From a virus (Duplodnaviria; Heunggongvirae; Uroviricota; Caudoviricetes): a stretch of 23,397 nt of DNA. The stretch is taken from positions 1 to 23,397 of the IMG/VR virus record IMGVR_UViG_2645728091_000017; one strand, written 5' to 3'. Positions 15,652 through 16,004 of the stretch are shown here, in pieces. The translations under genes were made by a program, and so were the position numbers. A model generated the notes under the pieces. The model saw only the letters and a program-made list of their open reading frames with translations. It searched no databases and had not been told where the DNA came from. The stretch's first letter is position 1. Each line of letters begins with the position of its first letter.

Positions 15652-15749
15652 AAATCCCCCGAAAAAGGCGGACTGGCCGGTTTCCACGGCGCAGTTACAC
15701 ACAATGTGTTCTTCCCTCCACCGCGTCCGCTTGGCTTGCGGTAGTCTTT

Positions 15750-15998
15750 TTAGTGCTCAGTATTAAAAGTGTGAGTATGTGCGCCTGCGTTATGGTTATA
15801 TGCACTCACACTATGGCTATGCGCCCCTACAGAATGGGTATGTGCGCCGCTCAGAGAATGGCTATGTGCACCTGCACTATGGGTATGTGCCCCCACAGAA
15901 TGGGTATGTGCCCCCACAGAATGGCTATGTGCGCCTGCGCTATGGTTATATGCACTCACACTATGGGTATGTGCACCTTGTAAATGGCTTTCTTTCAT
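15750..15998 (-). CDS. Histidine-rich heptad-repeat small protein (GAH[ST]H[ST]V repeats), unknown function; moron between M and L
   Basis: 82 codons. AAGGA Shine-Dalgarno about 10 nt upstream of the ATG, which lies 7 nt after the M stop. Sequence is almost entirely GAHTHSV/GAHSHSV repeats. The opposite strand also yields ORFs because of the repeat, so coding status rests on context. Confidence 0.45.
   Translation of the reverse strand: MKESHLQGAHTHSVSAYNHSAGAHSHSVGAHTHSVGAHTHSAGAHSHSLSGAHTHSVGAHSHSVSAYNHNAGAHTHTFNTEH
15770..15990. repeat. Tandem direct repeat array, about 21-bp unit (some units extended), roughly 10 copies
   Basis: Visible periodicity such as ctatgggtatgtgcccccacagaatgg repeated; encodes the heptad His repeats on the minus strand. 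Confidence 0.8.
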
Positions 15999-16004
15999 TT
16001 GTTG

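Follow-up and report, generated by a model that had tools for sequence, protein, structure and literature searches.

We analyzed a stretch of DNA of 23,397 nucleotides (nt) from a virus of the Caudoviricetes (IMG/VR record IMGVR_UViG_2645728091_000017, positions 1 to 23,397; the window is this whole stretch). Between the late genes M and L we found a small, intact open reading frame (ORF) made almost entirely of histidine-rich repeats. The ORF begins with ATG and runs from 15998 to 15750 on the minus strand, the strand of the neighboring late genes, with its ATG at 15996..15998 and its TAA at 15750..15752 (ORF list). We refer to it as the HxH ORF, after the His-x-His (HxH) motifs of its repeats. 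Upstream is M, which encodes the small subunit of terminase (16005..16709, minus strand; PF05944, E = 1e-39). Downstream is L, which encodes the head completion or head-tail adaptor protein (15199..15651, minus strand, with the ATG that the Prokaryotic Genome Annotation Pipeline (PGAP) calls in relatives; PF05926, E = 5e-39). A preliminary description of this DNA had reported a His-rich repeat protein of 82 amino acids (aa) on the operon strand between these two genes, and that ORF is indeed there and intact, with 82 codons followed by a stop codon.

The product of 15750..15998 is MKESHLQGAHTHSVSAYNHSAGAHSHSVGAHTHSVGAHTHSAGAHSHSLSGAHTHSVGAHSHSVSAYNHNAGAHTHTFNTEH, a protein of 8.5 kDa in which 20 of the 82 residues (24%) are His. 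It is laid out as a leader of seven residues (MKESHLQ), ten G-A-H-x-H-x-x units, and a tail of four residues (NTEH). The units are 7-8 residues long: one has eight residues, and in two the first His is replaced by Tyr. That is, a motif scan of the ten units gives eight HxH and two YxH. The DNA that encodes them is a tandem array with a 21-nt unit, which spans 15776..15977 in a unit-by-unit listing of the codons. Tandem Repeats Finder called 8.8 copies of the 21-nt unit at 15791..15977 (score 137), in agreement with the 21-bp array described before, and also higher-order periods of 63 nt (score 206) and 87 nt (score 229). The exact 82-aa sequence was called on at least 24 contigs.

The sequence ahead of the ORF contains the elements expected of a translation initiation region (15999..16012, minus strand): a Shine-Dalgarno sequence, AAGGA, at 16008..16012, the TAA of M at 16005..16007, and a CAACAA leader at 15999..16004. 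The AAGGA precedes the ATG by 9 nt, overlapping the final Gln-Gly codons of M; the ATG begins 6 nt past the M stop codon. The ribosome-binding site had been noticed in the preliminary description but was placed there after the M stop codon; the site is real and the placement was not. No sigma-70-like promoter was predicted in 15000..17000, and none of three terminator-like matches was on the ORF strand adjoining the ORF. The G+C content at third codon positions (GC3) is 0.35 in the HxH ORF versus 0.59 in M, and His is encoded by CAT in 18 of 20 cases versus 15 of 32 in the other late genes.

We found that the HxH ORF belongs to a known family of fiber repeats. Pfam PF03335 (phage tail fiber repeat) matched it in five stretches with 40.5 bits (E = 1.5e-10), above the curated gathering cut-off of 20 bits and above the 24.7 bits scored by the phage's own tail fiber, and the repeated G-x-H-x-H core of the family is present. 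In a phmmer search of solved structures, the receptor-binding tip of T4 gp37 (2XGF) was matched with E = 7e-4 over its HxH-bearing needle. Splicing factor 3A subunit 2 gave a stronger match that we set aside as compositional, since it comes from GVHPPAP repeats. The tail-fiber PHROGs 2097 and 295 matched the ORF weakly, and there was no family for it in NCBIfam.

In solved trimeric beta-structures, HxH motifs from three symmetry-related chains hold an octahedral Fe(II), as in R-pyocin fibers, T4 gp37, and the spikes P2 gpV and phi92; T4 gp12 has Zn at the equivalent HxH site, and the buried metals have been proposed to serve as reference points for trimer folding (PMC6116203). The HxH ORF is thus made up entirely of a module that is known for linking three chains through a metal ion. 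It does not have the architecture of a tail fiber; there is no N-terminal baseplate-attachment domain, and no C-terminal receptor-binding or collar domain. For this reason the names 'tail fiber protein' and 'phage tail protein' that it carries (RefSeq; ESSI2_ev129 gp20, WP_074441931) are misleading. A literature search found no paper describing the HxH ORF. To our knowledge, HxH repeats have been known only from within large fiber and spike proteins.

Comparison of alleles favors a protein-coding gene at 15750..15998 over a non-coding repeat. We collected alleles from complete Escherichia coli genomes, phage records, IMG/VR, and metagenomes by using the invariant leader, ATGAAAGAAAGCCATTTACAAGG, as a probe. 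There were 11 distinct alleles at the DNA level and one found only in the protein library (P0001), making 12 protein alleles, from E. coli prophages, phage ESSI2_ev129, and metagenomes. Their repeat number differs widely, giving proteins of 32, 32', 33, 47, 48, 53, 61, 68, 73, 78, 78', and 82 aa. It had been proposed that premature stops or changes of frame in homologs would mark the array as non-coding. We found neither: start, frame, and stop were intact in 12 of 12 protein alleles (11 of 11 at the DNA level). The 38-nt initiation region was identical in all alleles, and every allele kept the C-terminus GAHTHTFNTE[HQ] followed by a stop codon. The alleles fall into two sub-lineages, ending in FNTEH and FNTEQ, and the ORF is kept in both. 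The steps in length between alleles include 3 nt and 15 nt, which are not multiples of 21 nt, and all are in frame. Preservation of the frame is therefore not just a by-product of slippage by 21-nt units.

The units themselves vary in a way that looks like constraint on the protein. Among the 29 distinct 21-nt units found across the alleles, entropy at codon positions 1, 2, and 3 was 0.55, 0.53, and 0.94, respectively. The second His was invariant (29 of 29), Ser at unit position 6 was encoded by TCT as well as by AGT or AGC, and GGT, GGC, and GGG were all in use for Gly. The sense frame was the longest open frame in every allele; the antisense frames open and close. Several searches of databases recovered little of this family. 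An exact-sequence look-up in a protein collection found it represented by the 32-aa allele only, a word-indexed protein search with the ORF gave P0001 as a single match, and a tblastn search against phage genomes left only ev129 after low-complexity masking.

The gap between M and L in P2-like prophages of the Quadragintavirus type is a polymorphic cargo slot, in which at least three different contents occur. We surveyed it by using M as a probe, at 14 species-representative loci and 80 loci from IMG/VR; 91 of these loci had both M and L. The slot was empty, with only a spacer of 93-99 nt, in about 78 of the 91, and one more had a gap of 115 nt without an ORF. The HxH ORF was present at three loci. 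Eight others had an ORF of 51-65 aa encoding an SH3-like protein, which is annotated 'L33' in phages ESSI2_ev015 and ev040, and one, in Ewingella americana, had a fusion of 99 aa (below). The junctions of the cargo were precise and lay in every case between the M stop codon and AGACTACCGCAAGCC. Relative to empty slots, the insert in the window is about 255 nt (15750..16004), and the remaining 98 nt (15652..15749) are the spacer common to relatives, including those that have no insert. The earlier figure of roughly 350 bp for the insert was thus too large. In P2 the gap is 99 nt and has no annotated gene, as had been stated. A search for homologous M-L inserts, suggested in the same description, turned up the HxH ORFs, the SH3-like ORFs, the fusion, and a second small HxH ORF (P0203, below).

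The HxH ORF is optional, because in relatives the slot is empty or otherwise filled, and it is not needed for phage viability. The M-L region was present in 23 of 5,426 complete E. coli genomes; five of these had the HxH ORF and 13 had an empty slot. ESSI2_ev129, with the HxH ORF, and ev015 and ev040, with the 65-aa SH3-like ORF, were deposited in INPHARED as complete phage genomes. We considered whether presence of the ORF goes with the type of tail fiber and rejected this, since ev015 has the same fiber type and lacks the HxH ORF. The ev015 fiber is 92% identical to that of ev129 and 91% identical to that of the window; overall, the ev129 and ev015 fibers are 91-95% identical to the window's type. 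We also rejected an essential cis-acting site, such as iterons or a terminase site, because the array is missing from most relatives.

In Ewingella, the repeat occurs as the C-terminal part of a larger protein. The fusion has an 'L33'-type domain and then ...GEHGHELPGVHSHALPGAHTHSVSGSHTHTF. A protein search gave five variants (P0014-P0018) of 89-100 aa that are 66-82% identical and have 3-4 HxH units, and two more of these five were confirmed in the M-L slot, with a start codon that overlaps the M stop codon. At another Ewingella locus (L026) the SH3-like N-domain is followed by a decayed HxH tail. The E. coli leader M-K-E-S-H-L-Q is similar to the junction in the fusion, ...D-E-S-E-L-Q... (E-S-x-L-Q), and the two share the codons GAA AGC in frame. 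This resemblance suggests that the stand-alone HxH ORF arose by loss of the SH3-like N-domain.

The N-domain belongs to a family with 795 matches, mostly stand-alone proteins of 60-65 aa from prophages of Enterobacterales. In lambdoid prophages they occupy a place typical of accessory genes, with the lysis genes on one side and the terminase genes on the other. An AlphaFold2 model of the domain (predicted local distance difference test score (pLDDT) 84.5) is a five-stranded SH3-like barrel. In a fold search the closest match was HspQ, a Lon specificity factor (5YCQ, TMq 0.82), and the others were uncharacterized phage proteins and DUF2158. No function follows from these matches, which were only to generic small barrels. 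The annotation 'L33' of the SH3-like cargo (2649..2846 in L002 and L003, the slot of L024, and L107-L112) looks unfounded.

Free-standing proteins made of HxH repeats are rare. A phmmer search of 1.84 billion representative proteins gave 170 matches with E <= 0.001, nearly all of them long and fiber-sized. The convincing short matches were the family of the HxH ORF (P0001 and P0002) and one other, P0203, which is 54 aa: MMNNKNNNVCTHNHAVGAHTHSLGGTHSHTPGVHTHSLGGTHTHTLGAHTHEQA. P0203 is also encoded in an M-L gap, that of a relative with a 62% identical L (253..417 of contig L126, from Logan SRR33598369). There it follows the conserved spacer, directly behind a Shine-Dalgarno-like AAGGTG that precedes the L start codon in sibling contigs, and is separated from the L start codon by 3 nt. 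It is missing from the sibling contig L127, which has a 99% identical L, and from the other 79 relatives that we fetched, one of which has an ORF of the E. coli type upstream of the spacer instead. The two insertion points within the M-L gap suggest repeated recruitment of such ORFs or movement of a cassette.

We also scanned IMG/VR for the motif. A strict pattern (GAHxH three times) found one protein, in a baseplate module. With a loose pattern (HxH four times) there was no further mini-protein among the matches listed, and most of the short ORFs were simple repeats translated out of frame. An unrelated IMG/VR contig (L207, about 10347..10871) encodes a protein of about 135-175 aa with heptad-spaced GAHxH units (…GSGAHSHSGGAHTHDGGAHTHG…), next to genes for a 334-aa protein and a baseplate J-like protein, as read from ORF translations. 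This has the look of a small spike or needle protein constructed from the GAHxH repeat.

The likeness between the HxH ORF and the phage's own tail fiber, pointed out in the preliminary description, is borne out by the repeat searches above and by the fiber itself. The fiber gene (5207..6781, minus strand) encodes a T4-gp37-like protein with the domains PF12571, PF07484, and PF03335. Six HxH motifs are in residues 392-498, with a spacing of mostly nine residues; this zone is at about 5283..5608 (minus strand; translation and motif scan). By BLASTP, the HxH ORF is 40% identical to it. The fiber gene and its assembly gene are about 9 kb from the HxH ORF. At the DNA level there is little in common: the longest match between the HxH ORF and the fiber gene is 17 nt, and CAT accounts for 6 of 15 His codons in the fiber versus 18 of 20 in the ORF. 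With the nine-residue units of the fiber, the different codon usage, and no DNA match beyond 17 nt, we ruled out that the HxH ORF is a recent copy of the fiber repeats. The same DNA comparison and His codons speak against the suggestion that the array is a recombination substrate.

A motif scan of the window found HxH in two structural proteins besides the ORF product: the fiber (GAHxH[TS]V) and the tip of the central spike (ASHSH). The spike gene (1681..3384, minus strand) encodes a protein with Phage_base_V and Gp5_C repeats that ends in CASHSHPSVG; P2 gpV is known to have this apex motif with a single HxH. HxH sites are thus in three different proteins of this phage, the ORF product, the fiber, and the spike.

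The spacer between the HxH ORF and L (15652..15749, minus strand), which forms the 3' border of the slot, is present in relatives with or without cargo and is structured. Its elements are a long-range helix, GCGGAC/GUCCGC, inner helices, and a U-run, after which comes the L ribosome-binding site GGGGGA. For 24 distinct spacer sequences, RNAalifold gave 16 pairs, 7 of them with compensatory double changes. The spacer, of about 97 nt, is conserved in prophages from E. coli to Serratia, Rahnella, and Ewingella (L013-L106), with the helix consensus GCGGRC/GYCCGC. The 99-nt spacer of P2 (2902..3000 in L208) has a comparable long nested hairpin and then UUUU. Rfam had no match at E <= 1 in 15500..16100. 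This spacer may be an attenuator, an element that stabilizes the mRNA, or an element that controls translation of L.

Over 18 kb, the window shares 95% identity with Escherichia phage ESSI2_ev129 (Peduoviridae, Quadragintavirus). The genes are in the order spike, fiber, baseplate, tape measure, lysis, tube, sheath, S, R, L, the slot, M, N, and O; terL, portal, and ogr are divergent from O. Relative to ESSI2_ev129, frameshifts split terL (about 19714..19757, plus strand) and the tail-fiber-assembly gene (about 4863..4870, minus strand). An independent metagenome assembly (L010) shows the terL split as well; in L011, an NCBI assembly, no gene was called across the interval. Because both genes are frameshifted, this prophage is probably defective. 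Downstream of ogr, where ESSI2_ev129 has replication genes, is a gene for a DUF2806 protein of 345 aa (22006..23043, plus strand), and at the left end is an ORF of 238 aa (1..717, plus strand) with no match in Pfam. Both are likely to be variable cargo or flanking genes.

We propose that the HxH ORF encodes a functional accessory peptide that is expressed late, from the cargo slot, and we put the probability of this at about 50%. Its transcription would probably be with that of the late head operon (O-N-M-...), given its position and because no promoter of its own was predicted. Translation would start from its own AAGGA site, just after M. By analogy with T4 gp37, the R-pyocin fibers, and P2 gpV, three copies of the peptide would most likely form a homotrimeric rod in which as many as eight metal ions hold the chains together. 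As in the solved modules, each layer of HxH motifs would cage a divalent metal, and the length of the rod would scale with the number of units. The gene itself changes in length by gain and loss of units, presumably through slippage or unequal recombination. Since the Ewingella fusions carry the HxH tail C-terminal to the SH3-like protein, the repeat would most likely serve there as a stalk that oligomerizes that domain and binds metal. The stand-alone gene in E. coli is then probably a derivative with the stalk only, one half of a two-domain cargo protein. A stalk by itself, if it still has a role, might buffer metal, act as a template for folding, or be an appendage.

Several points weigh against a functional peptide. 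Its expression is deduced from the position of the gene, and its trimerization and metal binding from analogy. The spacing of the HxH motifs is 7-8 residues rather than the 9-13 of the phage's own fiber and T4 gp37, and the geometry may differ. An AlphaFold2 single-chain model of the Ewingella fusion was poor (pLDDT 48.8). Some alleles have substitutions that break the motif (SAYNH, GARSH, GVHTH), in which the first His is replaced by Tyr or Arg or a neighboring residue is changed, and this fits relaxed constraint. The signal of selection at the codon level could have been inherited from an ancestral functional gene. Finally, the 82-aa allele is in a prophage with two frameshifted genes, and the gene may no longer matter there.

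Several of these points could be explained if the HxH ORF is a functionless relic of a two-domain gene (SH3-like plus HxH) that lost its N-domain, perhaps still translated but drifting neutrally in length. This is the main rival of a functional peptide, and we consider it somewhat unlikely. The slot is empty in most relatives, and decay does happen in it, as seen in the Ewingella locus with an SH3-like gene and a decayed HxH tail. Alleles of 32-82 aa show no preferred length, motif-breaking substitutions occur, and two genes that are essential are frameshifted in the prophage of the window. On the other side, loss of the start, frame, or stop was seen in 0 of 12 alleles, with an initiation region identical over 38 nt and the ORF kept in both sub-lineages. 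The independent HxH-only ORF elsewhere in the M-L gap, also in a translatable configuration, weighs against a relic too, as does the great rarity of free-standing HxH-only ORFs among the 1.84 billion representatives. If one goes further and takes the array to be a non-coding tandem repeat, with protein-binding iterons or a recombination substrate for diversifying the fiber and an open frame that is a by-product, then more has to be set aside. It is true that 21-nt repeats keep any frame open, and the antisense frames are partly open. However, the third-position bias, the switching between codon families for Ser, the invariant His, the conserved ATG and Shine-Dalgarno sequence, and the indels that keep the frame without being multiples of 21 nt all point to a coding function. 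So do the homologous repeats within the longer conserved ORF of the Ewingella fusions; the short DNA match to the fiber gene speaks against recombination, and the absence of the array from most relatives speaks against an essential cis site. We regard a non-coding repeat as the least probable of the explanations.

Other explanations keep a function for the peptide and differ in what it acts on. It could help or mimic the tail fiber or spike, as a folding template, a metal donor, a competitor, or a decoy for a host factor that recognizes the fiber tip. The fiber, with its six motifs, and the spike tip (ASHSH) are the only other HxH structural proteins in the window, the ORF is 40% identical to the HxH zone of the fiber, and a folding role would agree with the proposal that metals are reference points for trimer folding (PMC6116203). 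But phages with the same fiber type occur with the ORF (ev129) or without it (ev015), the gene is in the head module some 9 kb from the fiber genes, and support for heterotrimers is lacking, which makes such a helper or decoy quite improbable. The location in the head module, adjoining L, and the acquisition of HxH mini-ORFs twice in the M-L gap would fit a trimeric rod that decorates the head or neck of the virion, for example near the L adaptor. The fusion to a small beta-barrel recalls decoration proteins in which a trimeric stalk is joined to a globular anchor. The stand-alone form, however, has no recognizable anchoring domain, and the motif is in no head protein of the window. The moron-type positions of the SH3-like family, between lysis and terminase genes in unrelated lambdoid prophages, point instead to an accessory role in the cytoplasm. 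An appendage of the virion is thus very unlikely.

A broader reading of the functional peptide, which we offer as speculation and rate as rather unlikely, is that free-standing HxH mini-proteins are an unrecognized class of self-assembling, metal-caged trimeric rods that have a real job and have been recruited more than once. P2-like phages would have recruited them beside the head-completion gene, either by themselves or to serve an SH3-like protein as its stalk, with repeat number tuning the length of the rod. Their job might be that of a neck or head appendage, a nucleation template acting in trans, a metal donor for the spike or fiber, or a modulator of a host factor. The allele series of 3 to 10 units, and the fusion, would be a minimal natural system for the role of HxH-bound metal in the folding and stability of trimeric fibers, and the repeat could be a ready-made, modular trimerization tag. 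If the peptide is inert, the locus is a modest case of gene decay or growth driven by repeats. The database annotation 'tail fiber protein' is also corrected for this gene.

The HxH ORF resembles several known systems and differs from each. It is like phage morons in its precise presence or absence between collinear conserved genes, in a composition and codon usage unlike those of its neighbors (GC3, above), and in sharing a slot with alternative cargos. Unlike morons, it has no detectable promoter or terminator of its own and starts 6 nt past the M stop codon, so expression from a repressed prophage, a classic feature of morons, is not expected. The 'L33' or DUF2158-like SH3-barrel proteins (phrog_8618) occupy the same M-L slot in sister phages and are fused to an HxH tail in Ewingella; they have no sequence relationship to the HxH ORF and are alternative or partner modules. 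Hpn of Helicobacter and the C-terminal tail of SlyD are also His-rich and likely have affinity for divalent metals, as would be expected of the HxH ORF. Those are irregular, disordered segments rich in His and Gln or His and Asp, whereas the HxH ORF is a strictly periodic repeat of the fiber type, and we found no homology of the ORF to such metal-storage or chaperone peptides.

The closest likeness is to the needle of T4 gp37 (2XGF) and other PF03335 proteins, which have the same G-x-H-x-H units; in gp37, motifs from three chains hold seven iron ions. In contrast to gp37, the HxH ORF is only 82 aa and only repeats, with no baseplate-attachment domain, collar, or receptor-binding head. Its period is 7-8 residues rather than 9-13, and it is encoded in the head module, away from genes for fibers or their chaperones. 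In the spike tips of P2 gpV and phi92 gp138 and in the fibers of R-type pyocins, one HxH from each of three chains makes an octahedral Fe(II) site (PMC6116203). There, the motif is a single site in a large folded protein, whereas here eight to ten tandem sites stand alone.

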